Origin: a virus
Length of the DNA: 64,000 bases
Virus record (IMG/VR): IMGVR_UViG_3300031111_000011
Location: 1-64,000 of that record
Strand: one strand, 5' to 3'
The notes under the pieces were generated by a model. The model saw nothing but the letters and a program-made list of their open reading frames with translations. It was not told the origin of the DNA and did not search any database. Made by a program: the position numbers and the translations under genes. Positions 4,440 to 64,000 of this stretch are shown here, in pieces; positions within the stretch are counted from its first letter, which is position 1; the number at the start of each line of letters is the position of its first letter.

Positions 4440-5332
4440 CCCTCATGAAAAAGATCGAAAACGGAACTGATGCCATCCTCGCCATGGAAGAAGCCGGACA
4501 CAATTACACCGTCAGCAAGGTGCCCCTGGTTCTGCCCAACGGCGCGACGGTGCCCGATATGTGCGCCACGGTTACCGACGATGGCCGGTATCTGGGCACT
4601 GTGGGGCGGGACTTCCAACCCGTTCAGCCAGTGGACGTCTACGGGATTGCCCAGAACATGATCGATCTTTCCGGAGGCCAGATCACCAAGGTCGCAACTC
4701 TCCACGATGGTGGGTCGATGGCGATTTCCATCCACCTCCAACGGATGGAGCCGGTCACTGGGGACGTTGTGGATCTGGACTTCCTGCTCATGGCGGGGAA
4801 CAACGGCAAGATGGCGGTCCAGGGCCGATCCTTGTCAACCCGATTCTTTTGCATGAATCAACTTCCTTCGTCCACCTCACTCTTTTCCCTGAAGCACACC
4901 GTGAATGTTCTTTCTCGGATGGAGACGGCCACCAAGATGCTGGCCTACTACAACCGGGAACTCACCAAGTTCCAGGATGCCCTGCGGGTGCTCACTCGCT
5001 TCCGACATCCTGAAAAACAAGCGCTGGAATGGTTCACTGGGCTTCTCCCTGCTCCCCAGAAGGACAGCAAACGCAGTGCGTCCATCCACGAGAATACCGT
5101 GGAAACCTTCATCGAGCTACTCCACGACGGCCAGGGCGCAAATCATCCCGGTGTCCGTGGAACCGGATGGGGATCGCTGAATGCCCTGACGGAGTGGGTG
5201 AATCACCATCGGTCCACTCGTGTCCGGGGTGACCGTGATCCGGAGGAGGTCAAATTCACCTCCGTGACCATGGGGTCCGGTGATCAACTGATGCAGAAGG
5301 GGCTCAAGTCCCTACTCAAGATTGCCGTGTAA
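4436..5332 (+). CDS. phage/plasmid-related protein of unknown function (298 aa)
   Basis: ATGA overlap start, AAAGGAG RBS; product class is a guess. Confidence 0.55.
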   Translation: MTLMKKIENGTDAILAMEEAGHNYTVSKVPLVLPNGATVPDMCATVTDDGRYLGTVGRDFQPVQPVDVYGIAQNMIDLSGGQITKVATLHDGGSMAISIHLQRMEPVTGDVVDLDFLLMAGNNGKMAVQGRSLSTRFFCMNQLPSSTSLFSLKHTVNVLSRMETATKMLAYYNRELTKFQDALRVLTRFRHPEKQALEWFTGLLPAPQKDSKRSASIHENTVETFIELLHDGQGANHPGVRGTGWGSLNALTEWVNHHRSTRVRGDRDPEEVKFTSVTMGSGDQLMQKGLKSLLKIAV

Positions 5333-6331: not shown

Positions 6332-6468
6332 GGAGGAGCCACTGGCGAGACGTGCCCAGGTTGACAGTGTTGCCGCACCGGTTTTTCTGGAAGAGGTGCG
6401 GGACGAAGTCAGCGTCTACAATCTGAAACGGGCCAAAACCAGCATGGACGTGTAACCAAGGAGAAGAC

Positions 6469-6684
6469 ATGTTTTACATCAGGTTTCTTGAGCTATGGAA
6501 TCTGTCAACATCGGATTTTAGGATTTACGGGGCGACTTTTGCGACGGATGAAATCTGGTTTTTAATTGTGGAGAAAGGCCGTGGGCTCTCTCACTGGGGC
6601 CGATCTCTACAGGCCAGGATGAATCGTTACAACGGCGTTATCCACTCTGATGATCATCCCCTGAACAAACTCTATGGGAGGTAA
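6469..6684 (+). CDS. hypothetical protein (71 aa)
   Basis: AAGGAGAAG RBS then ATG. Confidence 0.5.
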   Translation: MFYIRFLELWNLSTSDFRIYGATFATDEIWFLIVEKGRGLSHWGRSLQARMNRYNGVIHSDDHPLNKLYGR

Positions 6685-6686
6685 AC

Positions 6687-6974
6687 ATGAAAGAGCATCG
6701 ATTCACCATCGAAAGTGCGGCCCAGGTCAGAGCCAAGGTCAAGGCGTTTCAGGAACTGACCGATGCCAAGAAGGTTGAGGTTCGGGTTCGAGGCCCGTTC
6801 CAATTCGACAAGTCCAAGGATCAGCCCATCTTCATTTCCGCACCGGATGGGGATCTGGTCACCGTCTCGGATAAGGCGGGGACCGCTATCCACCGAGCCT
6901 CCAAGCAGGACATCAAACTGGGGGCCAATCCCGACCTGGATTTTCCCCAGGTCTGTATTCTGCGGGTCAGATAA
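6687..6974 (+). CDS. hypothetical protein (95 aa)
   Basis: GGGAGG RBS then ATG. Confidence 0.55.
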   Translation: MKEHRFTIESAAQVRAKVKAFQELTDAKKVEVRVRGPFQFDKSKDQPIFISAPDGDLVTVSDKAGTAIHRASKQDIKLGANPDLDFPQVCILRVR

Positions 6975-7248: not shown

Positions 7249-8028
7249 ATGGAAAAACTCAGAGAGGCAATGTCCAAGGTGCTACGAGACGTAGGCGAAG
7301 GGTACGAACTGTTCTTGCTGGTTACTTACCACAGTCAGACCACTGGGGTCACCATCTTGGACAAGGATCTGACCATCCTCTGGTACAACCCATATGTCCA
7401 AAAATACTTTGGCCTTGAGTTCATTAACACTAATTACCTTGACAGGTTTCCTGGGGAGCAGAGAGAGGCCACGAAGAGTCAACTGCGGCAAGCAGAAAGG
7501 ACCGGGGTCAGTGATCCTGCGCTCCTTCAGCCCCCAGGTGTTGAGATGGTTGTCGAAAGGCGCATCTGGGCAGTCTCAGGCGGGTACATCGCCGCATCCT
7601 ACGACCACACCGTACTCACTCAAGCAGAACAACGCACCAAGGATGTACAGACCACACTGACCCTCTTAGCTGAGGCGCGGGAGGGGCTGATACGGGATGC
7701 CCAACTCAAGACACTGGATATGATGGAAACTCACTGCAAGGCAATCTGCGGCAAATATGGGAACCGAAGCCCGTATGAGTGCAAGTCGAGAAAGAAAGTG
7801 CTGGCTGAGATCCTGGCAGGTAGGCCCAGGCTCCAGACCACACTCACTGACACTGAACTGGAGGTGGCTCGGCTCTACCAAGCGGGTCATCGGAGAAAGG
7901 AGGTTGCCGAGATCCTCGATGTGTCTGAGCATACGGTAAAAAATCATAGTACCTCCATCAGAAAAAAGCTTGGCATGAACAACCCAAGTGTGTCCCTTAT
8001 TGAGTATCTTCAACGGTTTACCTTATAG
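7249..8028 (+). CDS. PAS-like sensor + LuxR/GerE-type HTH transcriptional regulator (VqmA-like architecture)
   Basis: C-terminal LTDTELEVARLYQAGHRRKEVAEILDVSEHTVKNHSTSIRKKLG is a LuxR/FixJ-type HTH; N-terminal ~120 aa has a PAS-like pattern; own promoter and own transcription unit. Confidence 0.7.
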   Translation: MEKLREAMSKVLRDVGEGYELFLLVTYHSQTTGVTILDKDLTILWYNPYVQKYFGLEFINTNYLDRFPGEQREATKSQLRQAERTGVSDPALLQPPGVEMVVERRIWAVSGGYIAASYDHTVLTQAEQRTKDVQTTLTLLAEAREGLIRDAQLKTLDMMETHCKAICGKYGNRSPYECKSRKKVLAEILAGRPRLQTTLTDTELEVARLYQAGHRRKEVAEILDVSEHTVKNHSTSIRKKLGMNNPSVSLIEYLQRFTL

Positions 8029-10465: not shown

Positions 10466-10719
10466 GAATTCAACTCACTCCAGAGGAGATCGACGGACTG
10501 AAGACGTGGTTGGCGTACCCAAAGAAGGTCCGCAGAGGGGAATGTCCGTTTGTCTTTGTGCCGGGGAATACCTGTGCTCGTATCTGCCGCATGGTTTTTC
10601 CGGGTGATGAACTCGGCCTGTGCCCCTGTGACCAAGAGGGCGCAGACCATAAAAAAATCTATGAAGTTGCACGAGAAGGTGCGGAAAGGGGGTACATCAC
10701 AATTGGACTCGGACATTAA
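10463..10719 (+). CDS. Cys-containing hypothetical protein (85 aa)
   Basis: ATG overlaps upstream stop; frame of track ORF 10375..10719. Confidence 0.45.
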
Positions 10720-11713
10720 TGGCACGGTGATTTTTCTGACACCGTTTGGATCGCATCTCTACGGTACATCCACTCCGGAGTCGGATCTGGACTACAAGGG
10801 GGTGTATCTGCCGACAAAGGAGCAGATCCTGATCGGGAAGATCCCCAAGACTATCACTCGAAACACCAAGGTCGGAGAGGGGAAGAACAGCAAGGAAGAC
10901 ATTGACTTTCAACTTTATTCTCTCCCCTACTTTGTGGACCTTCTGGTCCAGGGTGAAACGTCGGCTATCGACATGATCCATGTCCGAAAGGATCAAGCTC
11001 TCGTGTGGACGGATGAGTGGGAACGGCTGCACCGCAACCGTCACATGAGCTACAGCAGAAATATGAAGGCGTTCGTCGGGTATGCCCGTAAACAAGCGGC
11101 CAAGTACGGGGTCAAAGGCAGTCGCCTTGCAGCCATGCAAGACGTCCTTGAATACCTGATGGCCTATATCCAGAAGGAGATTCTGTATGATTATGAACGT
11201 GATACCAAACTTCGAGACGTATGGGATGATCTTCCTGATGGTGATCATATTCATCGTCTTGATCCGACTGATCGAACTCCTTATCGCATGTATCAGGTCT
11301 GTGGGAAGAAGTTTATGGAGACAGTCAAGATTCGAGAAGTCTACGCTTCGATCAAGAAGTCCTATGATCAATACGGTCACCGGGCAGAACTGGCGAAGAA
11401 GAATCAGGGCATCGACTGGAAGGCAGTATCCCACGCACTCCGTGCGGCTTACCAACTGGTGGAAATCTTTGGGTCCGGGGATCTGGCCTTTCCACTCGCT
11501 GATGCGGCTTATCTGCGGAAAGTGAAGGAAGGCTCACTGGACTGGACCTCCTGGGTTCAACCCCACCTGGAGGAAATGATGGGCCGGGTGGAGTGTATGG
11601 CCTCTCTCTCCAAATTCCCAGAACAAGTGGACCGGACCTTCTGGAACAATCTGACTATCGACATCATGGAAACGTGGTTACTTACTCAAACTGTAGGAGG
11701 TGAATTATGCTGA
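10661..11713 (+). CDS. Pol-beta superfamily nucleotidyltransferase (NTP_transf_2-like N-terminal domain), about 350 aa
   Basis: FGSHLYGTSTPESDLDYKGVY matches the hG[GS]x9-13Dh[DE]h motif; start uncertain (ATG 10661 overlaps the upstream gene; an internal GTG is possible). Confidence 0.55.
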   Translation: MKLHEKVRKGGTSQLDSDINGTVIFLTPFGSHLYGTSTPESDLDYKGVYLPTKEQILIGKIPKTITRNTKVGEGKNSKEDIDFQLYSLPYFVDLLVQGETSAIDMIHVRKDQALVWTDEWERLHRNRHMSYSRNMKAFVGYARKQAAKYGVKGSRLAAMQDVLEYLMAYIQKEILYDYERDTKLRDVWDDLPDGDHIHRLDPTDRTPYRMYQVCGKKFMETVKIREVYASIKKSYDQYGHRAELAKKNQGIDWKAVSHALRAAYQLVEIFGSGDLAFPLADAAYLRKVKEGSLDWTSWVQPHLEEMMGRVECMASLSKFPEQVDRTFWNNLTIDIMETWLLTQTVGGELC

Positions 11714-26422: not shown

Positions 26423-26438
26423 TTCTCAATATTGAAAA
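26423..26438 (+). promoter_or_regulatory. Palindromic motif TTCTCAATATTGAAAAG, site 6
   Basis: Abuts the AGGAGG RBS of rtcB. Confidence 0.45.
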
Positions 26439-26446
26439 GGAGGACT

Positions 26447-27661
26447 ATGGAAAAGGTCATGTTTTCATCAGGCAGAATCCCTGCCTACTCATGGTTACCA
26501 GTGGACAAACTGGAGGAAGGCGCTCTGGAACAGATCCAGGCTTGCACTGCCCACCCCAAGGCTTACCACCACATGGCTGTGATGCCCGACTGTCACCAGG
26601 GATATGGGATGCCCATTGGCGGTGTGGTTGCCCTGGACGGCGCAATCAGCCCCAACATGGTGGGGGTGGACATCGGCTGTGGGATGAGTGTGGTCCGCAC
26701 CAACGCCAAATTCGTTCACACTTATCAAATCAAGGAAATCCTGAACCGACTCAAGACCATGGTTCCTGTCGGTGAGGGGAAGTTTCGATCTGACCCCGTC
26801 TCCTGGCCCAAGTGGGTGGAGTATCTGGACAAGGTCAAGGAGCGTCCTGACTGGATGAAGGGCTCTAACTGGCATCGGTTCAAGTGCAGCATGGGAACTC
26901 TGGGAGGTGGGAACCACTTTCTGGAGCTTCAGCGGGATGAAGAGGGTTACCTCTACATGATGCTCCACTCCGGTTCCCGTGGCCTGGGGTACGCCATTGC
27001 CAAGTACTACAACGAACTGGCCCAGACCTACTGCGTCAACCTAGACATCCCCAACAAAGATCTGGCTTACCTGCCGACCGATCACAAGTGGGGGCAAGCC
27101 TACATCCGGGACATGAACTTCGCCCTGGCTTTTGCCAAGGAAAACCGCAGGGTCATGATGGATGCCTTCAAATTCGCTTTCTTCCACGTTCTTGGATCTC
27201 CTGTCCGGGAGGACATTGATGTTGTCGATGAGATCGACATCCACCACAACTACGCGGCATTGGAGCACCACTTCGGCAAGGATCTGTGGGTTCACCGGAA
27301 AGGCGCGACTTCGGCCCAGTCTGGACAACTGGGGATCATTCCCGGTTCCATGGGAACCCACTCCTACGTCGTCGCTGGTAAGGGGAACCCGGACTCCTTC
27401 AAGTCCTGCTCCCACGGTGCTGGTCGAGTGAAGGGTCGGATGGCCGCTACTCGTGAACTCGACCGGATGGAGCAGGAGAGGAAGATGGACGGCATTGTCT
27501 TTGACGGGTTCAAAACCCTGAAGAAGGGTAAGCTGAAAGGTGCGTATGACCTGGGCGAAGCCCCTGATGCCTACAAAAATATTGATACTGTCATGTGGCA
27601 CCAGGGGGATCTGGTGGACGTGGTAGTAAAACTCAAACCGATAGGAGTCTTGAAAGGGTGA
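26447..27661 (+). CDS. rtcB: RtcB-family RNA 3'-phosphate ligase
   Basis: DIGCGM, GGGNHFLELQ, HNYAALE and HRKGAT blocks; about 404 aa. Confidence 0.85.
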   Translation: MEKVMFSSGRIPAYSWLPVDKLEEGALEQIQACTAHPKAYHHMAVMPDCHQGYGMPIGGVVALDGAISPNMVGVDIGCGMSVVRTNAKFVHTYQIKEILNRLKTMVPVGEGKFRSDPVSWPKWVEYLDKVKERPDWMKGSNWHRFKCSMGTLGGGNHFLELQRDEEGYLYMMLHSGSRGLGYAIAKYYNELAQTYCVNLDIPNKDLAYLPTDHKWGQAYIRDMNFALAFAKENRRVMMDAFKFAFFHVLGSPVREDIDVVDEIDIHHNYAALEHHFGKDLWVHRKGATSAQSGQLGIIPGSMGTHSYVVAGKGNPDSFKSCSHGAGRVKGRMAATRELDRMEQERKMDGIVFDGFKTLKKGKLKGAYDLGEAPDAYKNIDTVMWHQGDLVDVVVKLKPIGVLKG

Positions 27662-28638: not shown

Positions 28639-28937
28639 AGCTGATCTGCTGTCCCTCTTGTTGGGACGTGTTCAAACTCGCCAAGGAAGAGCGCACCTGC
28701 TCATGCGGACGGTGCTCAGGCAGGTACCTCAACAACACCTACGCCGAGACAAATGGTGAGGGAATCAACCTCGCCATTGGCAACGGGTCACTCCTGCAAG
28801 CGGCTTACAACCTCGACCACTTTGCGAAGGACGCAGAGCGTCACGAGTTCATCGACCACAACCCCGTGATCTGTTGGGTCCGTCCTCCAGAAGGACCGGG
28901 AAACCCACACACCACTGTACGAAAGGAGGAATCATGA
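28635..28937 (+). CDS. Cys-rich protein (100 aa)
   Basis: ATGA overlap; CCPSC..CSCGRC. Confidence 0.5.
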   Translation: MKLICCPSCWDVFKLAKEERTCSCGRCSGRYLNNTYAETNGEGINLAIGNGSLLQAAYNLDHFAKDAERHEFIDHNPVICWVRPPEGPGNPHTTVRKEES

Positions 28938-30322
28938 ACCCCATTCTGAATACTGACTCTTACAAAGCGAGTCATTACAGGCAGTACCCTGAAGATGTGG
29001 CCTGGGTGAGTTCCTATATCGAAGCACGGGGTGGAAAATACCCTGAGACGGTTTTCTTCGGGCTGCAAGCCTTCCTGAAGGAGTACCTAAGCAAACCCTT
29101 CACCCAGGCTCATATCAATGAGGCAGAGGACTTCTGGGAGGCTCACGGCCTCCCGTTCAATCGGGGAGGGTGGGAATACATCCTCGCCAGATACCGGGGC
29201 TATATGCCTATTTTGATCCAGGCGGTGGATGAGGGCTCGGTGGTTCCCACTGGCAATGTTCTTGTTCAGATTATTAACACTGACCCTGAAGTTCCCTGGA
29301 TCACCAGCTACGTGGAAACCGCTCTGCTCCGGGCAATCTGGTACCCCACCACGGTGGCTACCCTTTCCCACTTCTGCAAGCGAGATCTCTACAACTACTG
29401 GAAGGAGTCGAGTGACGCTCCTATTGAGTCCCTGGACTTCAAACTTCACGACTTCGGTGCTCGTGGGGTGAGTTCCCTGGAATCTGCTGGACTGGGTGGG
29501 ATGGCCCACCTCGTCAACTTCAAAGGCACCGATACGGTGGAAGGGGTTCTCGCTGCAAGACGGTACTACAACGAGCCCATGGCAGGATACTCAATCCCTG
29601 CTGCCGAGCACTCCACCATCTGCTCCTGGGGCGGTCCAGGACGAGAAATGGATGCCTTCCGAAACATGATCAGCCAGTTCGGTGGAGACTATCCACTGAT
29701 CGCTGTGGTCAGCGATTCGTACAATATCTGGGACGCAGTGGATAACAAATGGCCTTACCTGGATACCGAGATCAGTGCCAGTGGGTCCACCATCGTGGTC
29801 CGTCCGGACAGTGGAGATCCCCACATCGTACCTGTCGAGGTGATCAGCCGTCTCATGCAGAAGTTCGGATTCACGGTCAATAGCAAGGGCTACCACGTCC
29901 TTCCGGATCGAATTCGAGTTATCCAAGGCGACGGGATTACCGGCGATAGCCTGAATCGCATCCTGTTCAACCTCCGGATGAAGCGTCTCAGCATCGACAA
30001 TATTGCCTTTGGTATGGGTGGTGGGCTGCTCCAGCAGATCAACCGGGATACCTGCAAGTTCGCCATGAAGTGCAGTGCGGTTGCTGGCAAGAGCAACCAA
30101 TGGCAACCGGTGTTCAAGCAACCTGTGGATCAGCCTGACAAGGTGAGCAAAAAGGGTCGGCTGAACCTGATCCGGAACTCGGATGGTGAGTTCGAGACGG
30201 TCCCGGAGAAGTGGGAAGAGTCGCGGGGGGTTATGCCCATCCGGAGCATTAACGGGCTCCGCTACCACACCACAACTTTCGAGGAAATCCGGGGACGGGT
30301 CCAGGAGCACCTCATTGCTTAG
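28934..30322 (+). CDS. nadV: nicotinamide phosphoribosyltransferase (NadV/NAMPT)
   Basis: N-terminus MNPILNTDSYKASHYRQYP matches NAMPT over about 460 aa; GGAGGAATC RBS. Confidence 0.85.
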   Translation: MNPILNTDSYKASHYRQYPEDVAWVSSYIEARGGKYPETVFFGLQAFLKEYLSKPFTQAHINEAEDFWEAHGLPFNRGGWEYILARYRGYMPILIQAVDEGSVVPTGNVLVQIINTDPEVPWITSYVETALLRAIWYPTTVATLSHFCKRDLYNYWKESSDAPIESLDFKLHDFGARGVSSLESAGLGGMAHLVNFKGTDTVEGVLAARRYYNEPMAGYSIPAAEHSTICSWGGPGREMDAFRNMISQFGGDYPLIAVVSDSYNIWDAVDNKWPYLDTEISASGSTIVVRPDSGDPHIVPVEVISRLMQKFGFTVNSKGYHVLPDRIRVIQGDGITGDSLNRILFNLRMKRLSIDNIAFGMGGGLLQQINRDTCKFAMKCSAVAGKSNQWQPVFKQPVDQPDKVSKKGRLNLIRNSDGEFETVPEKWEESRGVMPIRSINGLRYHTTTFEEIRGRVQEHLIA

Positions 30323-34420: not shown

Positions 34421-34648
34421 TTAGTGGATGGGGTCACCAAGGAACACGTAGAAGGGCAAACCACAATGCTTACACCACGCATCCATGCCCCACGAACCAT
34501 CACCAAGTTCCCGGTACTCACCGACTTCAGTGATCATCTCAGAGCACTGGATGCACTCGATCTCGATGGATGCAACGGACATGTCGTCGGACATGTCCAC
34601 AGTCCCAATTTCCTGGCCGACCACATTAAGAGCTTTGTATTTTGTCAT
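34421..34648 (-). CDS. zinc-ribbon small protein downstream of the integrase (excisionase/accessory candidate)
   Basis: CIQC..CKHCG; start overlaps the integrase stop. Confidence 0.4.
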   Translation of the reverse strand: MTKYKALNVVGQEIGTVDMSDDMSVASIEIECIQCSEMITEVGEYRELGDGSWGMDAWCKHCGLPFYVFLGDPIH

Positions 34649-35940
34649 TAGCCCACCTTTCCGAAGAGGGGAATCACCTGGGCTGTCTTGGGTGCGTGGA
34701 CCCCGTCATCCTCCCAAGGATGGAACTGAGCAGCCCACTCATCGATGAGCCTCTTCCCCTCCTCCTTGAGGGTCTTCTCAAAGTGGATGTAGTCCTGGGT
34801 GATCAGTGCTCCCATCTGGATTGGGTCACCCTTCTTCTGGATCGTATGAGAGAGCATCACACTCACCAGACGTTCGTTCCCAGACACCTCATAGAGTTTG
34901 GTAGCCAGAGTGTGTCGGAACTTGTGGAAGGATTCACTCTCCTTCCTACTCTTGCCCTTCTGGACCCCAAACAACAGTTCCCTGGCCTGATTGATTGGTC
35001 GTCGAGAGTGCCATTTGAACCGGAACACCTTACCAGTGTATTTGGCCGATCCGTGTTTTTTGGACTGTACCAATTTAATAGCGTCCTTGACGATCTCAGG
35101 CATGTAGAACCATGCCCACTTCCCGTCATTCGGACCCTTTCGCAGGAACTTGAGGGTTCCTTCCTTCCAGTCGATCCGGTCCCACCACACTCCCACATCC
35201 TTCTTATGGTTCCCGTTCCCAGTGAGTTCATGGACTCGGAACCCCATGAAGAAGCCCAGGCAGACCTGGGCGTAAGCTTCGGCCCATCGGAGTCCATCCA
35301 CCCCCTCAGTTTGTCTGTACAGGAACCGTAGCAGCTTGGCTACTTCCTCATCCGTGAACGTCCGGACATCCTCCATCAATTCCTCCTCAGTAGGTTCGGT
35401 GCTGACAGGTTTGACCAGATCAGCCGGGTTAGCCCCGGCGTACAGACCCTCCCCAAGGGCAAACTTGTACAGGTTCCGGATCGTGCTGATGAAGGCGTTG
35501 ATCGTGGTCGGTGCGTAGTGCCCCTCCTTGACCAAAGCCCTCTGAAACACCCGGAGCTTGCCTGGGGTGATTGCCGCCAGGGGCTCATGTGCGAACCATT
35601 TCTTAAACCGCTGGTTGTACTTGGATTGGTAGTTCGGCACAGCCGATGCTCCCACCTTTTCCATGTGCTCCAGCCACAACTTGTACGCCCGACTGAAAGT
35701 GATCGCTTCGAGCTTGTCCGGGATGGCCTGTCCCAGTTTGAGCTTCTGAAGCATCTTATTCCGCTCCTCCTCAGCGATCTGAAGGGAGAATCCGTTGTCC
35801 TCCCTGCCCACCTGGAACCGCTTGTTCTTACCATCCACCTTCACCATGAAGCTGAAGGTCTTGCCATCCCTGCCGTGGTAGGTGTAACAGCCCCGGTGCC
35901 GCTTGCTTGCTACGTGTGTCCCGATTTTCCCCTTTGCCAT
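34648..35940 (-). CDS. int: tyrosine recombinase / phage integrase
   Basis: HKFRHTLATKLY..LSHT region consistent with R..HxxR..Y catalytic residues; AAAGGAGG RBS then ATG at 35940 (MAKGKIG). Confidence 0.85.
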   Translation of the reverse strand: MAKGKIGTHVASKRHRGCYTYHGRDGKTFSFMVKVDGKNKRFQVGREDNGFSLQIAEEERNKMLQKLKLGQAIPDKLEAITFSRAYKLWLEHMEKVGASAVPNYQSKYNQRFKKWFAHEPLAAITPGKLRVFQRALVKEGHYAPTTINAFISTIRNLYKFALGEGLYAGANPADLVKPVSTEPTEEELMEDVRTFTDEEVAKLLRFLYRQTEGVDGLRWAEAYAQVCLGFFMGFRVHELTGNGNHKKDVGVWWDRIDWKEGTLKFLRKGPNDGKWAWFYMPEIVKDAIKLVQSKKHGSAKYTGKVFRFKWHSRRPINQARELLFGVQKGKSRKESESFHKFRHTLATKLYEVSGNERLVSVMLSHTIQKKGDPIQMGALITQDYIHFEKTLKEEGKRLIDEWAAQFHPWEDDGVHAPKTAQVIPLFGKVG

Positions 35941-36106
35941 TCTACCTCCTTTCGTGGGGTAACAAACCCCGGTTTGATTGTGACTTTCTTGTGACTTTTG
36001 GCCCGTCATGACTTACTGCAATAATTCAATTTTTCAAGTCTGGGCAAATATAACAACTCCGCAAACCTTTGTCAATAGCGAACTTCTCGTGTGTTATCAG
36101 TACCTT

Positions 36107-62157: not shown

Positions 62158-62231
62158 TGGTCAGGGATGCTGGAATCGAACCAGCCGCCCCAAGCTTCCA
62201 AAGCCCAGGAGACTCCTTGCCGTTATCCCTG
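62158..62231 (-). tRNA. tRNA-Pro(UGG), tentative
   Basis: 7-bp acceptor, T-arm GCTGG/TTCGATT/CCAGC, loop UUUGGAA; anticodon stem has three G.U pairs. Confidence 0.45.
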
Positions 62232-62495: not shown

Positions 62496-62570
62496 TGGCA
62501 CCCCGCTAAGGAATCGAACCCTACCAATGCACCGGGTTGGAACCGGGCCGCACCCATGTGCTGCGAGGTG
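62496..62570 (-). tRNA. tRNA-Trp(CCA), tentative
   Basis: Acceptor and T-arm fold; loop UUCCAAC; short D-loop. Confidence 0.45.
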
Positions 62571-62583
62571 TGAGATGTAGAAA

Positions 62584-62690
62584 TGGGGTGAGCGGAGGGA
62601 ATCGAACCCTCTACAACAGGGCCACGACCTGTCGGCTCAACCTTTTGCTCTTCGCCCACAGTTGGACCACTCACTAAGAGTGGCTCACCC
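62584..62690 (-). tRNA. atypical long tRNA-like element (91-106 nt)
   Basis: Canonical T-arm GAGGG/TTCGATT/CCCTC plus acceptor and CCA, 9-bp terminal stem; no regular anticodon arm found by eye. Confidence 0.3.
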
Positions 62691-62697
62691 CACGAAA

Positions 62698-62797
62698 TGG
62701 ACGATGACCGTGGGACTCGAACCCACGCTCCCAAGAGGTGTCTCCCGGCGATCAACCCGTAACTGCCCCCCAGTGTGTTATCCAGCTACACCAGACA
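62698..62797 (-). tRNA. atypical long tRNA-like element (~100 nt)
   Basis: Acceptor CGATGTC/GTCATCG, D-arm GTGT-AGCTGGATA-ACAC, T-arm GTGGG/TTCGAGT/CCCAC, CCA; 49-nt middle lacks a canonical anticodon hairpin. Confidence 0.3.
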
Positions 62798-62808
62798 TCG
62801 ATATTTGT

Positions 62809-62883
62809 TGGTACTCCCTGATGGAATCGAACCACCCTCTACTGCTTGTAAGGCAGTCGTTATAGCCACTCTACTAAGGGAGT
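62809..62883 (-). tRNA. tRNA-Val(UAC)
   Basis: Acceptor ACTCCCT/AGGGAGT, anticodon stem ACTGC/GCAGT, loop CUUACAA, CCA. Confidence 0.55.
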
Positions 62884-62954
62884 ATGTGCCGGTGGCAGTG
62901 ATTAACGACCTTTGCTCTTATCATCGGGACGGTCATGCGAGGACCGGCAGAAAA

Positions 62955-63028
62955 TGGACTCCCTGAGAGGATTCGAACCTCCATCCAACGGTTCGTAGCC
63001 GAATGCTCATCCGTTGAGCTACAGGGAG
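62955..63028 (-). tRNA. tRNA-Arg(ACG)
   Basis: Acceptor CTCCCTG/CAGGGAG, D-stem GCTC/GAGC, loop CUACGAA, T-arm GGAGG/TTCGAAT/CCTCT, CCA. Confidence 0.55.
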
Positions 63029-63034
63029 TGAGTT

Positions 63035-63075
63035 GGTTTTGCCCTAAAAATAGGGGCGTTTTTGTGGCAAAACTA
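63035..63075. other. Nested hairpin spacer inside the tRNA array
   Basis: GTTTTGCC..GCCCTaaaaatAGGGGC..GGCAAAAC, read directly. Confidence 0.4.
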
Positions 63076-63151
63076 TGGTCTGCCTGGGAGGAGTCGAACC
63101 CCCTACTCTGGGGGTAGAAACCCCAAGCTCTGTCCGATGAGCTACAGGCAG
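63076..63151 (-). tRNA. tRNA-Arg(UCU)
   Basis: Acceptor CTGCCTG/CAGGCAG, D-stem GCTC/GAGC, anticodon stem TGGGG/CCCCA, loop UUUCUAC, CCA. Confidence 0.65.
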
Positions 63152-63156
63152 TGAAG

Positions 63157-63231
63157 TGGAGCCTCGTGGAGGACTTGAACCCCCGTCCCAAGCTTACAAG
63201 GCACGTATTCTACCAGTTGAACTAACGAGGC
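63157..63231 (-). tRNA. tRNA-Thr(UGU)
   Basis: Acceptor GCCTCGT/ACGAGGC, loop CUUGUAA, T-arm with TTCAAGT loop, CCA. Confidence 0.6.
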
Positions 63232-63238
63232 AAAGAAG

Positions 63239-63312
63239 TGGAGCGGTCACCAGGAATCGAACCTGGATCTGCCATCGGGGAGACAGCTATGCTACCATTA
63301 CACCATGACTGC
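63239..63312 (-). tRNA. tRNA-Gly (CCC or UCC), tentative
   Basis: T-arm CCAGG/TTCGATT/CCTGG; acceptor has one A-C mismatch; loop CUCCCCG. Confidence 0.4.
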
Positions 63313-63323
63313 TCAAAAATTGA

Positions 63324-63400
63324 TGGAGCGGATACAGGGACTCGAACCCTGACCATCTGGTTGGAAGCCAGATATGCTTGCCGTTGAACACCATACCCGC
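63324..63400 (-). tRNA. tRNA-Gly(UCC)
   Basis: Acceptor GCGGGTA/TATCCGC, anticodon stem TCTGG/CCAGA, loop CUUCCAA, CCA. Confidence 0.6.
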
Positions 63401-63403
63401 TCA

Positions 63404-63489
63404 GTGAGCCAAGGGGAGACTCGAACTCCCAAACCTTCCAGATCAGGGCCATGGTGACCTGGATATGCACCCTATACACCAGCTTGGCG
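63404..63489 (-). tRNA. atypical class-II-sized tRNA-like element (~86 nt)
   Basis: T-arm GGGAG/TTCGAGT/CTCCC and 6-bp acceptor; internal 8-bp hairpin CCAGGTCA/TGATCTGG; no encoded CCA; anticodon arm not resolved. Confidence 0.3.
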
Positions 63490-63572: not shown

Positions 63573-63661
63573 ACAGGACAGATTTCCTTTTTGACGTCTT
63601 GGGCCAGGAATACTGTCTAAGAACCCAATGGAACCACAGGGGTATCTCCCCATGGCGGTTT

Positions 63662-63735: not shown

Positions 63736-64000
63736 GAAAATGTTACCCTGTGTAAAACTCCTCCGCGTTTCCATGGTCACCAGAGGAGAAAACCCGGTCG
63801 CACAGGGGTATCGAAGACTCCGGGTTTTGGCTTATGGCTCGACTCAGGGGAGTTTCACCCCCACACTCTATGGTCACTTTGTCTGACCAGGACCAGGGAC
63901 TTCCATTGGAGTGTTTAAGCAGTGAGCGGTCTTACGGTCATCCGCACTGCGAGTCGCATATGCTTGCTCTCCACTCATAGCGAGAATACTTACAACCATT

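Follow-up and report, generated by a model that had tools for sequence, protein, structure and literature searches.

Degenerate genes reportedly occur in long bacterial tRNA arrays. In phage T4, the RNAs known as species I and II come from one precursor with its eight tRNAs (PMC2330249). The phage array described here contains two units, e2 and e3, that resemble both in being extra tRNA-sized units among bona fide tRNAs, presumably co-transcribed with them and with no known decoding role. The likeness to the T4 RNAs is one of description only, and e2 and e3 differ from them in that both have a full acceptor/T/D framework and that e3 has a traceable host origin. A second described group, the bacterial Y RNAs of the YrlA type, have tRNA-like domains in which the place of the acceptor stem is filled by a stem-loop connecting the T arm to the D arm (PMC4201824). 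YrlA-type RNAs and e2 and e3 are alike in being tRNA-shaped noncoding RNAs encoded near RNA repair genes, but the acceptor stem of e2 and e3 is built from the ends of the RNA, and in YrlA that position is taken by the T-D intervening stem-loop. A third precedent is provided by the Rickettsia palindromic elements, palindromic mini-elements found inserted in genes for structured RNAs.

Relatives of the phage carry Ro60 and tRNA-like RNAs within or beside their tRNA arrays, and those RNAs have a 5' module in common. A Y RNA reading of e2 and e3 was considered and rejected: the relatives' 5' module is absent from e2 and e3 and from the window (the whole 64,000-nucleotide stretch of viral DNA that was analyzed), neither the window nor the 10 kb upstream of terminase in locus L001 contains a Ro60 (TROVE) gene, and the Rfam search returned no Y RNA match.

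The tRNA array and its phage

An initial annotation had picked out three over-long, atypical tRNA-like elements inside the tRNA array, here called e1, e2, and e3. All three lie on the minus strand, as does the array around them, at positions that proved correct to within ~3 nt. Each has the canonical T arm ascribed to it (consensus in all three) and an acceptor stem that pairs (7 bp in e1, 7 bp with one U.U in e2, and 6 bp in e3), and CCA is indeed encoded in two of them, e1 and e2. They are nevertheless three different kinds of thing, not members of one class.

ARAGORN at default settings skips all three. At a relaxed threshold (-ps90), it also recovered two divergent minus-strand genes that fall below the default threshold, a tRNA-Trp(CCA) gene (62496..62569) directly after e1 in the array and a tRNA-Pro(UGG) gene (62158..62231) with a counterpart in relative L003 (at ~7874-7953). 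The initial listing of the array had missed both genes and also the continuation of the array, which runs beyond the end of the window and comprises ~27 units in total. Without e1, the array covers 19 amino acids, with His as the sole gap; with e1 (His) and the Trp and Pro genes counted, all 20 are covered. The array has its own tRNA-Leu(CAG), it is tightly packed around e2 and e3, and a search of its minus strand for internal promoter or terminator motifs found none.

Elsewhere in the window, on the plus strand, the phage encodes RtcB (26432..27661; Pfam PF01139, E = 7e-105) and an RlaP-family nucleotidyltransferase (10550..11713; Pfam PF10127, E = 2e-10). The phage also encodes NAMPT. RtcB is an RNA ligase that acts on 3'-phosphate (or 2',3'-cyclic phosphate) ends and 5'-OH ends in tRNA repair and splicing, and the RlaP family has been linked to RNA repair pathways. 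For comparison, we gathered 95 related loci, the nearest terminase homologues being 62% identical. The pair e2 and e3 is carried by one genome only, which was assembled from two samples.

A tRNA-His(GUG) gene with a 5' leader

The initial annotation described e1 as over-long and without a normal anticodon arm. In fact, the 110-nt e1 unit (62584-62693, minus strand) is made up of a tRNA-His(GUG) gene of normal size (62584..62659; 73 nt plus the encoded CCA) and a 34-nt 5' leader, and its seeming extra length is due to that leader. The core matches the Rfam tRNA model RF00005 with 35.9 bits (62587-62659, model positions 1-71; gathering score, 29 bits), and it has an anticodon arm, ACAGG-UCGUGGC-CCUGU, with a GUG anticodon and a stem and loop of normal length. 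The acceptor strands GUGGGCG and CGCUCAC form 7 bp, and the T arm (GAGGG-TTCGATT-CCCTC) is of consensus sequence. From end to end, the core aligns with tRNA-His genes found in related phages (L016:7426 and L015:13980), and its BLAST matches are the tRNA-His genes of Streptomyces phages. The e1 core therefore shares with the canonical bacterial and phage tRNA-His (RF00005) its cloverleaf, GUG anticodon, C73, and encoded CCA, as well as homology to the tRNA-His of related phages. It departs from the canonical form in having C33 in the anticodon loop (UCGUGGC), where U33 is usual; in a weak D stem, although the D loop retains GG; and in the 34-nt leader, which competes for the 3' acceptor strand. 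It also has U at position -1, whereas a planctomycete tRNA-His gene encodes G-1. Judged by its sequence, the e1 core is a tRNA-His(GUG) gene of the working type, and what had looked like an atypical element is an ordinary tRNA-His gene with a leader.

The leader (62660..62693, minus strand) contains a hairpin (CCACUC-UUAGU-GAGUGG) and the stretch GGGGUGAGC (62683-62691), which pairs over 9 bp with e1's own 3' strand, discriminator, and CC, so that an alternative acceptor stem with a G-1:C73 pair can form. The 9-bp terminal stem of the initial annotation is thus real: the 110-nt unit folds at -51.4 kcal/mol (z = -3.95), with none of 200 shuffled sequences folding as well, and the leader-paired fold beats the canonical cloverleaf by 9.5 kcal/mol, with pair probabilities of 0.80-1.0. 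In the e1 precursor, then, the leader is predicted to pair with the 3' acceptor strand and CCA of the tRNA, and it would have to come off, presumably through RNase P, before the cloverleaf could form. We looked for the leader in the tRNA-His genes of the relatives and found it absent from them. One candidate for a second duplicated 5' acceptor strand, in relative L055, was rejected because it falls within coding sequence.

Two tRNA-like genes lacking an anticodon arm

That none of the three elements has a normal anticodon arm, as the initial annotation held, is incorrect for e1 but stands for e2 and e3, neither of which has a 5-bp/7-nt arm. The 103-nt e2 gene (62698..62800, minus strand) has an acceptor stem, D arm, T arm, and CCA. 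Its acceptor strands, CGAUGUC and GUCAUCG, form a 7-bp stem with a U6.U67 mismatch; its D arm, GUGU-AGCUGGAUAA-CACA, has GG in the loop; its T arm, (C)GTGGG-TTCGAGT-CCCAC(G), is of consensus sequence with a 6-bp stem; and its 3' end is U73 followed by the encoded CCA. The middle 46 nt contain a 7-bp hairpin (CCGGGAG-ACAC-CUCUUGG), and the anticodon stem-loop is missing. A search of e2 for a 5-bp/7-nt arm with all pairs intact found none; the best candidate, GGCAG-UUACGGG-UUGAU, makes four of the five pairs, two of them G.U. The e2 cloverleaf comes to -12.7 kcal/mol, whereas the minimum free energy is -34.8 kcal/mol, and the fold is no better than that of shuffled sequences (z = +0.33), so that e2 has no well-defined fold.

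The 84-nt e3 gene (63406..63489, minus strand) is better defined: its minimum-energy structure, a clean cloverleaf, accounts for 44% of the ensemble. It has an acceptor stem of only 6 bp (GCCAAG/CUUGGC, with C1.U72 unpaired), a D stem, GUG(U)/(G)CAU, whose loop contains GG, a consensus T arm (GGGAG-TTCGAGT-CTCCC), and C73, and, as had been observed before, it lacks an encoded CCA, the only gene in the array to do so. In place of the anticodon and variable arms stands a single hairpin, UCCAGGUCA-CCAUGGCCC-UGAUCUGGA. This internal hairpin had been recorded as 8 bp; it is real, and its stem measures 9 bp and its loop 9 nt. No candidate for a 5-bp/7-nt anticodon arm was found in e3.

Neither gene fits an established RNA model. 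In searches of 232 nt and 101 nt, no RF00005 match to e2 or e3 appeared at a cutoff as loose as E<=10. Nor did ARAGORN find a tmRNA in its tmRNA mode (-m), and the Rfam tmRNA models picked up T-arm fragments only (tmRNA, 10.8-11.3 bits; permuted tmRNA, 8.6-12.6 bits; threshold, 47), so that a tmRNA is unsupported. A class II tRNA, another of the options first proposed, would have both an anticodon arm and a variable arm, and e3 has one hairpin instead of the two, while e2 has a 7-bp extra hairpin and no anticodon arm; that option survives only as a statement about the descent of e3, from a class II tRNA-Leu(CAG) whose variable and anticodon arms are gone.

The e3 match leads outside the phage. 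The 22-mer GAGTTCGAGTCTCCCCTTGGCT of e3 has matches confined to five planctomycete genome-bin contigs, within or next to tRNA-Leu genes, and in four of the five it lies inside a tRNA-Leu gene called by ARAGORN; among 185,579 species genomes, Pirellulales and Planctomycetaceae are the sole groups with the e3 end match. In the three contigs that were checked (L096-L098), the genes present, PSD1, PSCyt, and DUF1501, are of a kind usual on planctomycete chromosomes. In the T arm together with the 3' acceptor strand, e3 and the host tRNA-Leu(CAG) are identical at 24/24 nt, compared with 11-18/24 for 21 canonical phage tRNAs, and the exact match to the 3' part of the host gene extends over 25 nt and continues, given one inserted C, into the host 3' trailer ACTGA. 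The 5' acceptor strand equals that of the host at six of seven positions. By hand count, e3 is ~84 nt long and the uninterrupted host gene ~85 nt, and e3 matches the L100 host gene in the length of the 33-nt anticodon-plus-variable segment. With 24/24 nt shared with a real tRNA-Leu gene, the tRNA ancestry of e3 is evidently not due to chance.

Thus, e3 has in common with the class II tRNA-Leu(CAG) of Pirellulales and Planctomycetaceae its length, acceptor stem, D stem, exact T arm, 3' trailer, and lack of an encoded CCA, and in the planctomycete host arrays CCA is almost never encoded. It differs in having one 9-bp/9-nt hairpin for the anticodon arm and variable arm together, and also in the change of A73 to C73, the loss of the 1:72 pair, and an extra C after position 7; small indels at both of its ends cut the acceptor stem to 6 bp. 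A sharp boundary separates the part that is 100% identical to the host gene from the part that is unrelated. The pattern suggests that e3 arose as a DNA-level copy of a tRNA-Leu(CAG) locus of the Pirellulales type and that the central 33 nt of the copy were swapped out afterward. Since A73 is an identity element for LeuRS, the change of position 73 from A to C, together with the altered 1:72 pair, would be expected to block leucylation; e3 is probably unable to decode, and its leucylation is unlikely. Two earlier ideas about e3 were dropped: descent from an initiator tRNA (on the basis of the C1.U72 mismatch and a CAU in the loop) gave an unconvincing alignment to the array's own tRNA-Met and was superseded by the tRNA-Leu(CAG) match, and likenesses to neighboring tRNA-Gly genes, or to a mosaic of 12-20-nt repeats, were too short to trust.

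No such source was found for e2. A relationship to tRNA-Ser was rejected, as the T arm alone matches; tRNA-Arg(ACG) would account for the Arg-like D loop and for UUACGGG, but it requires a very weak stem. The tRNA ancestry of e2 appears to be evident only at the level of its arms. Single-sequence covariance models of e2 and e3 found no homologue of either in 85 related phage loci, returning canonical tRNAs only (<=29 bits), and BLAST against GenBank phages gave T-arm matches only for both. Exact-pattern scans of viral contigs with the e2 3' end, D arm, and hairpin gave zero matches, two metagenome scans were likewise empty, and the e3 hairpin had no match in the viral contigs. Both hairpins are single copy, occurring nowhere else in the window or in viral contigs, and short-word BLAST searches with the central segments of e2 and e3 produced only chance-level matches of 9-14 nt.

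Probable disrupted tRNA copies and competing explanations

We consider it probable, at roughly 0.6, that e1 is a tRNA-His gene with a leader and that e2 and e3 are tRNA-derived, nondecoding by-products, that is, redundant copies disrupted by hairpin replacement. The possibility of pseudogenes or tRNA-like elements had been raised for all three; it is the best fit for e2 and e3, which have neither an RF00005 match nor an anticodon arm, but not for e1. Of the two, e3 combines tRNA ancestry, loss of the anticodon arm, and redundancy with the phage's tRNA-Leu(CAG), as a disrupted tRNA copy should. Both retain the acceptor stem, T arm, and D arm, the part seen by RNase P, the 3' processing enzymes, and the CCA-adding enzyme, whereas the anticodon module seems to have been swapped for hairpins that carry no anticodon, so that neither product could read codons. 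They would probably be co-transcribed with the array and then trimmed to stable tRNA-shaped RNAs, presumably without a function of their own. One point against this reading is that slow neutral decay does not look like the history of e3, which has four intact helices, a perfect new 9-bp hairpin, and a sharp identity boundary.

A replacement of this kind has a parallel in the planctomycetes. In one planctomycete genome bin, one 26-nt palindromic cassette stands precisely in place of the anticodon and the two nucleotides after it in each of two distinct tRNA genes, both of which have intact paralogues in the other array of the same genome. A third tRNA gene has the same 26-nt cassette in its variable loop. 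The cassette-bearing Leu(TAA) variant has one compensatory change in its anticodon stem, from U-A to C-G, which hints at selection on the extended hairpin of this host variant and tells against the by-product reading. Replacement of an anticodon by a hairpin, to all appearances the same kind of event as in e2 and e3, is therefore found in the tRNA arrays of the probable host lineage. Like the palindromic mini-elements mentioned above, the planctomycete cassette is a short hairpin segment that sits in a tRNA gene loop without disturbing the remaining fold; the e2 and e3 hairpins differ from such elements in being single copy.

The disrupted-copy reading has one substantial competitor, namely, that e2 and e3 are functional, nondecoding tRNA mimics that are processed like tRNAs and either soak up a host factor, such as a defense toxin specific for tRNA-Leu(CAG), or work with RtcB and RlaP as Y RNAs do with Ro60 in the relatives. 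We regard this as unlikely, yet it has several observations on its side. In e3, identity to the host tRNA-Leu(CAG) is complete in the T arm and 3' acceptor strand (24/24) and nearly so in the 5' acceptor strand (6/7), while all else differs, including the changes at 73 and 1:72 expected to block leucylation, and the RNA is predicted to adopt a single dominant cloverleaf. Phage tRNAs are known to counter tRNA-targeting defenses (PMC10264068). Because the phage encodes RtcB and RlaP (and, in addition, NAMPT), e2 and e3 may have a role as decoys, as proposed initially, or in RNA repair, and these two enzymes, together with the Ro60 genes and tRNA-like RNAs in the array region of the relatives, raise the possibility that tRNA-shaped noncoding RNAs are functional in this phage group. 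Against such a role, however, neither gene is conserved among the 85 related loci, the fold of e2 is ill defined, the end indels and 6-bp acceptor stem of e3 resemble damage rather than design, no partner protein was recognized, and the window contains no Ro60 (TROVE) gene. A broader version of the same idea would place e2, e3, and the cassette-bearing planctomycete tRNA genes in an undescribed class of anticodon-less tRNA-shaped RNAs, in which a hairpin cassette precisely takes the place of the anticodon (or of the anticodon and variable arms), the acceptor/T/D framework remains intact, processing is tRNA-like, and the products serve as decoys for tRNA-targeting defense or as cofactors or substrates of RtcB and RlaP, a role filled in the relatives by Ro60 and tRNA-like RNAs; we hold this only as a doubtful, speculative proposal.

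It is quite improbable that e3 is, or was, the attP site for integration into the host tRNA-Leu(CAG), with its 3' identity as the recombination core. The 3' ends of tRNA genes are common sites of phage integration, the 25-nt exact match running on into the host trailer is of the kind expected, and the phage has an integrase-like gene (34648-36009). The catalytic-domain match of that gene is nevertheless below threshold, at 24.6 bits against a Pfam cutoff of 27.1, and e3 lies ~27 kb away from it in the middle of an operon-like array. Moreover, e3 also has a 5' acceptor strand and a D stem, which would be superfluous for an attP site, and its discriminator is C where the host has A, so that integration would yield a defective tRNA-Leu. 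For e2, the corresponding comparison found no match to the 3' part of a host tRNA.

It is more improbable still that e2 and e3 are tRNAs with short intervening sequences (an option listed in the initial annotation) that a putative endonuclease would cut out, leaving the phage RtcB to reseal the RNA into functional tRNAs. RtcB is the tRNA-splicing ligase of archaea and animals, it is encoded by this phage, and ARAGORN with its intron option models e2 as Arg(ACG) with a 7-nt intron and e3 as Gln(CUG) with a 10-nt intron. These forced models, however, need mismatched stems rich in G-U pairs and yield arbitrary anticodons, and neither gene gave a persuasive intron model. Since the uninterrupted host gene is itself no shorter than e3, no excision from e3 could yield a product with an anticodon arm as well as a variable arm. 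The hairpins of both genes are without bulges, and the arm of e3 is a plain hairpin, which is why it has no bulge-helix-bulge motif; nor does either gene have a group I core, the segments being tens of nucleotides long and far under the size of a group I intron. In the planctomycete cassette cases the anticodon itself has been replaced, so excision could not restore it.

Least credible of all is that e2 and e3 are unusual decoders (tRNA-Sec, as proposed initially, an allo-tRNA-like species, or frameshifting or recoding tRNAs with 8-9-nt loops). In its favor are the acceptor-plus-T stack of e2, at 13 bp (7 + 6), and the long extra arm of e2, and in e3 the 6-bp D stem and the presence of CAU and AUG in the 9-nt loop. 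Against it, the tRNA-Sec model RF01852 gives e2 20.8 bits and e3 14.7 bits against a threshold of 47, a UCA anticodon is missing from the central regions of both, e3 lacks CCA, has an acceptor stem of 6 bp, and has C in place of U8, and the long open reading frames of the phage are uninterrupted under the standard bacterial code and so give no hint of recoding.

These results correct the annotation of the array: the phage has tRNAs for all 20 amino acids, and e2 and e3 are not to be counted as decoders. To our knowledge, few phages of planctomycetes have been described, and e3 provides a sequence-based host prediction for an uncultured phage, its ends matching a tRNA-Leu(CAG) found only in Pirellulales and Planctomycetaceae among the species genomes searched. 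The results also point to a recurring form of tRNA gene disruption in the probable host lineage, in which a hairpin takes the place of the anticodon module and the remaining fold is kept. If the products of e2 and e3 are unstable, the two are ordinary pseudogenes; if they are stable, they would be ready-made tRNA mimics and would bear on the conflict between phage and host over tRNAs, in which anticodon nucleases, RtcB repair, and Ro60 with its Y RNAs take part.

Three elements of the phage tRNA array

A minus-strand tRNA array lies at the window end, immediately upstream of the genes for the small and the large terminase subunit of a phage with an SU10-type portal. The large terminase of its closest relatives is only 62% identical, and among GenBank phages no match to the phage was found beyond individual tRNAs. 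Within the window, ARAGORN found 12 tRNAs at default settings and Rfam 13, and a relaxed ARAGORN threshold added tRNA-Pro(UGG) (62158-62231, minus strand) and tRNA-Trp(CCA) (62496-62569, minus strand). Two assemblies (L001 and L002) yielded the source contig, and there the array extends past the window end and comprises 21 tRNAs at the default threshold. Spacers are mostly 4 to 12 nt. A search of the minus strand revealed neither promoter nor terminator motifs within the array, which suggests that it is likely transcribed as one precursor. Longer spacers (47 to 265 nt; 62884-62954, 63029-63075, 63573-63661 and 63736-64000, minus strand) contain hairpins without tRNA features, such as GUUUUGCC..GGCAAAAC at 63036-63073 (minus strand). 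The sole tRNA-Met(CAU) (L001:6187-6259, beyond the window end) resembles an initiator in its C1.U72 mismatch and in the three G-C pairs adjoining the anticodon loop, and we identified no distinct gene for elongator tRNA-Met or for tRNA-Ile(CAU) in the array.

Elements e1 (62584-62693), e2 (62698-62800) and e3 (63406-63489) are located where the initial annotation placed them, on the minus strand, and each has the perfect T arm and paired acceptor stem ascribed to it. CCA is encoded at the ends of e1 and e2; e3 is the only one of the 26 array units to lack it. We consider it probable (about 0.6) that e1 is a tRNA-His gene of ordinary type preceded by a structured leader and that e2 and e3 are non-decoding tRNA copies in which the decoding module has been replaced.

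The description of e1 as over-long and devoid of a normal anticodon arm proved incorrect. Rfam recognizes a full-length tRNA at 62587-62659 (35.9 bits) with the anticodon arm ACAGG-UCGUGGC-CCUGU, giving the anticodon GUG (His), and the extra 34 nt are a 5′ leader (62660-62693, minus strand), so that the core is only 73 nt plus CCA. This core with its CCA aligns end to end with the tRNA-His of two related phage loci (L016 and L015) and is similar to that of a third (L003), and the 3′ half of the core matches tRNA-His genes of Streptomyces phages. Without e1, histidine would be the only amino acid absent from the array. The anticodon loop carries C33.

The leader, which is absent from the relatives' tRNA-His genes, contains the hairpin CCACUC-UUAGU-GAGUGG, and its start, GGGGUGAGC, forms a 9-bp pairing with the 3′ strand of the tRNA, including C73 and CC. 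The 110-nt unit has a folding energy of −51.4 kcal/mol (z = −3.95; 0 of 200 shuffles as good), and the leader-paired fold is 9.5 kcal/mol better than the canonical cloverleaf and dominates the ensemble. Because the D arm is unformed in the leader-paired fold, this fold cannot be a working tRNA, and the leader would presumably have to be cut off before e1 acts as one. Position −1 is U in the phage (62659-62660) and in its relatives (L003:7161-7162 and L016:7425-7426), with no G-1 encoded; a planctomycete tRNA-His gene (L096:5550-5624) encodes G-1, opposite C73. In the modeled fold, the outer strand of the leader could supply the G-1:C73 pair.

A planctomycete tRNA-Leu without its decoding part

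Element e3 matches no tRNA model. At minimum energy it folds into a clean cloverleaf, which accounts for 44% of the ensemble. The internal hairpin noted previously is present in the place of the anticodon arm, with a 9-bp rather than an 8-bp stem and a 9-nt loop, CCAUGGCCC.

A search of 185,579 species genomes with the exact 3′ 22-mer of e3 gave five exact matches, every one in Pirellulales or Planctomycetaceae genome bins. Four fall within ARAGORN-called tRNA-Leu genes of 85 to 88 nt (three CAG and one AAG) and the fifth within a Leu(CAG) copy that ARAGORN did not call and that has a deletion in the D arm. In the alignment, the matched genes carry A73 and do not encode CCA. Their arrays comprise up to 28 tRNA genes, and on the three contigs checked (L096 to L098) the neighbors encode PSD1, PSCyt and DUF1501, typical planctomycete chromosomal genes. 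In the T arm and the 3′ acceptor strand together, e3 is identical to the planctomycete tRNA-Leu at 24 of 24 positions (6 of 7 on the 5′ strand); for the 21 canonical phage tRNAs, agreement with the corresponding planctomycete genes is limited to 11 to 18 of 24. The identity enters the host 3′ trailer with one inserted C (host CTTGGCT-ACTGA, e3 CTTGGCT-C-ACTGA), and the 5′ leader of e3 also briefly resembles that of the host gene. By hand count from the alignment the two are of nearly equal length (~84 nt for e3 and ~85 nt for the host gene), and the CCA-less state, which e3 shares with no other phage gene, is the rule in the host, where 1 of 69 tRNA genes encodes CCA. In the gene on planctomycete contig L100, 33 nt form the anticodon and variable arms; e3 has in their place 33 unrelated nt that fold as a single hairpin. 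From the identity to the host gene, the near-equal length and the missing CCA, we conclude that e3 descends by DNA-level copying from a tRNA-Leu(CAG) locus of Pirellulales type and that its decoding part has been replaced.

Relative to the planctomycete class II tRNA-Leu(CAG), e3 thus retains the T arm, 3′ acceptor strand, approximate length and CCA absence but has one hairpin for two arms and C73 in place of A73. It also has small indels at both ends and a 6-bp acceptor stem. Judged from its sequence, e3 cannot read codons. A73 is an identity element for LeuRS, so e3, with C73, should not be leucylated. The phage encodes a separate short tRNA-Leu(CAG). A long variable arm is the norm for bacterial tRNA-Leu, and short forms are unusual; in both the phage and planctomycete arrays, however, short tRNA-Leu genes (74 to 79 nt, A73, no long variable arm) predominate (L001:6347-6422 and 6532-6609, beyond the window end; L097:816-891, 910-983, 1086-1161 and 1522-1600), and the only class II tRNA-Leu in the planctomycete arrays is Leu(CAG).

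Element e2 and the hairpin cassettes of planctomycete arrays

Element e2 ends in U73 and CCA. Its acceptor stem is 7 bp long and includes a single U.U mismatch, its D arm carries the loop AGCUGGAUAA, and its T stem has 6 bp. The hairpin CCGGGAG-ACAC-CUCUUGG lies in the 46 nt that separate the D arm from the T arm, and there is no acceptable anticodon stem-loop in this stretch; the reported lack of a normal anticodon arm stands for both e2 and e3. The Rfam tRNA model gives no match to e2, whose cloverleaf lies 22 kcal/mol above the minimum free energy; the folding z-score is +0.33. As tRNA-Sec, e2 scores 20.8 bits (threshold 47 bits), and ARAGORN's intron model, Arg(ACG) with a 7-nt intron, relies on a stem with many G.U pairs and mismatches. 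No parent or homologue was found in 85 related phage loci, GenBank phages, the scanned viral contigs and metagenomes, or the planctomycete arrays, where the T arm alone matches.

Two paralogous tRNA arrays (L096 and L097) occur in a single planctomycete genome bin. Two different genes in them, a copy of tRNA-Leu(TAA) (L096:6841-6937, minus strand) and one of tRNA-Gln(CTG) (L097:513-612, plus strand), carry the same 26-nt palindromic cassette, CGGGCACCG[A/C]CGCGCAGCGGTGGTCG, in place of exactly 5 nt, namely the anticodon and the two bases after it. The cassette lengthens the anticodon stem into a long hairpin; the remainder of each gene is unaltered, and each has an intact paralogue in the other array. 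A third copy, in reverse complement, occupies the variable loop of a tRNA-Arg(CCG) with an intact anticodon arm on an IMG/VR contig (L101:3049-3142, minus strand). All three copies found are within tRNA genes. Insertion of hairpin cassettes into tRNA loops thus does take place in the probable host lineage, and it yields the very architecture of e3. The cassette-bearing Leu(TAA) directly follows tRNA-Val(TAC), as does e2 in the phage. The hairpins of e2 and e3 are single copy, with no further copy in the window or the viral contigs scanned. Elsewhere in the L096 array lie an apparent 3′ tRNA fragment (~6776-6840, minus strand) and a tRNA-Leu(CAG) copy that has a deletion in the D arm (6436-6519, minus strand), indicating that degenerate tRNA pieces are common in planctomycete arrays.

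Relics or functional RNAs

Most likely, e2 and e3 are relics still embedded in the array. Against a pure relic view, every e3 helix is intact, the boundary between conserved and replaced sequence is sharp, a host variant has one compensatory change, and the phage invests in RNA repair. It encodes an RtcB RNA ligase (26432-27661, plus strand; E = 7e-105), an RlaP-family nucleotidyltransferase (10550-11713, plus strand) and a nicotinamide phosphoribosyltransferase (NAMPT; 28874-30322, plus strand), which together suggest countermeasures against host defenses that cleave tRNA or deplete NAD. That e2 and e3 act as functional mimics or decoys nevertheless seems unlikely.

Related phages encode Ro60 (TROVE; L003:5235-6764, L005:1-452 and L007:1-427), and one to three tRNA-like RNAs are present in L003, adjoining the TROVE gene (4788-4892 and 4988-5080), and in L016 (4983-5092, 5123-5203 and 5283-5366). 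These share a 5′ module (GGCAGTGAG..GGGTTACTTCG), downstream of which come a T arm and CCA, preceded in some RNAs by a D arm; Rfam at its gathering threshold reports none of them, save for one partial tRNA match. Their sequences suggest that they are likely phage Y-RNA-like molecules. Both the Ro60 gene and the 5′ module are absent from the phage window, and known bacterial Y RNAs (PMC4201824) have an architecture unlike that of e2 and e3.

An attP site would account for the 3′ identity of e3 and fails on its 5′ strand, altered discriminator and position, making this reading improbable. The phage may be temperate; a 453-aa integrase-like protein (34648-36009, minus strand) has weak tyrosine-integrase domain matches, that to the catalytic domain falling under the Pfam cutoff. 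Splicing of e2 or e3, contradicted by length and the absence of any splicing motif, is very improbable, and a special decoder, contradicted by the model scores and by reading frames intact under the standard code, is more improbable still.

tRNA pseudogenes within arrays are already known. Extra non-tRNA units in the tRNA clusters of phages also have precedents, among them the species I and II RNAs of T4, which have a precursor in common with the eight T4 tRNAs (PMC2330249). What is new here is that the host origin of e3 is traceable, that its anticodon module is precisely replaced while the tRNA framework is kept, and that a hairpin cassette recurs in planctomycete arrays.
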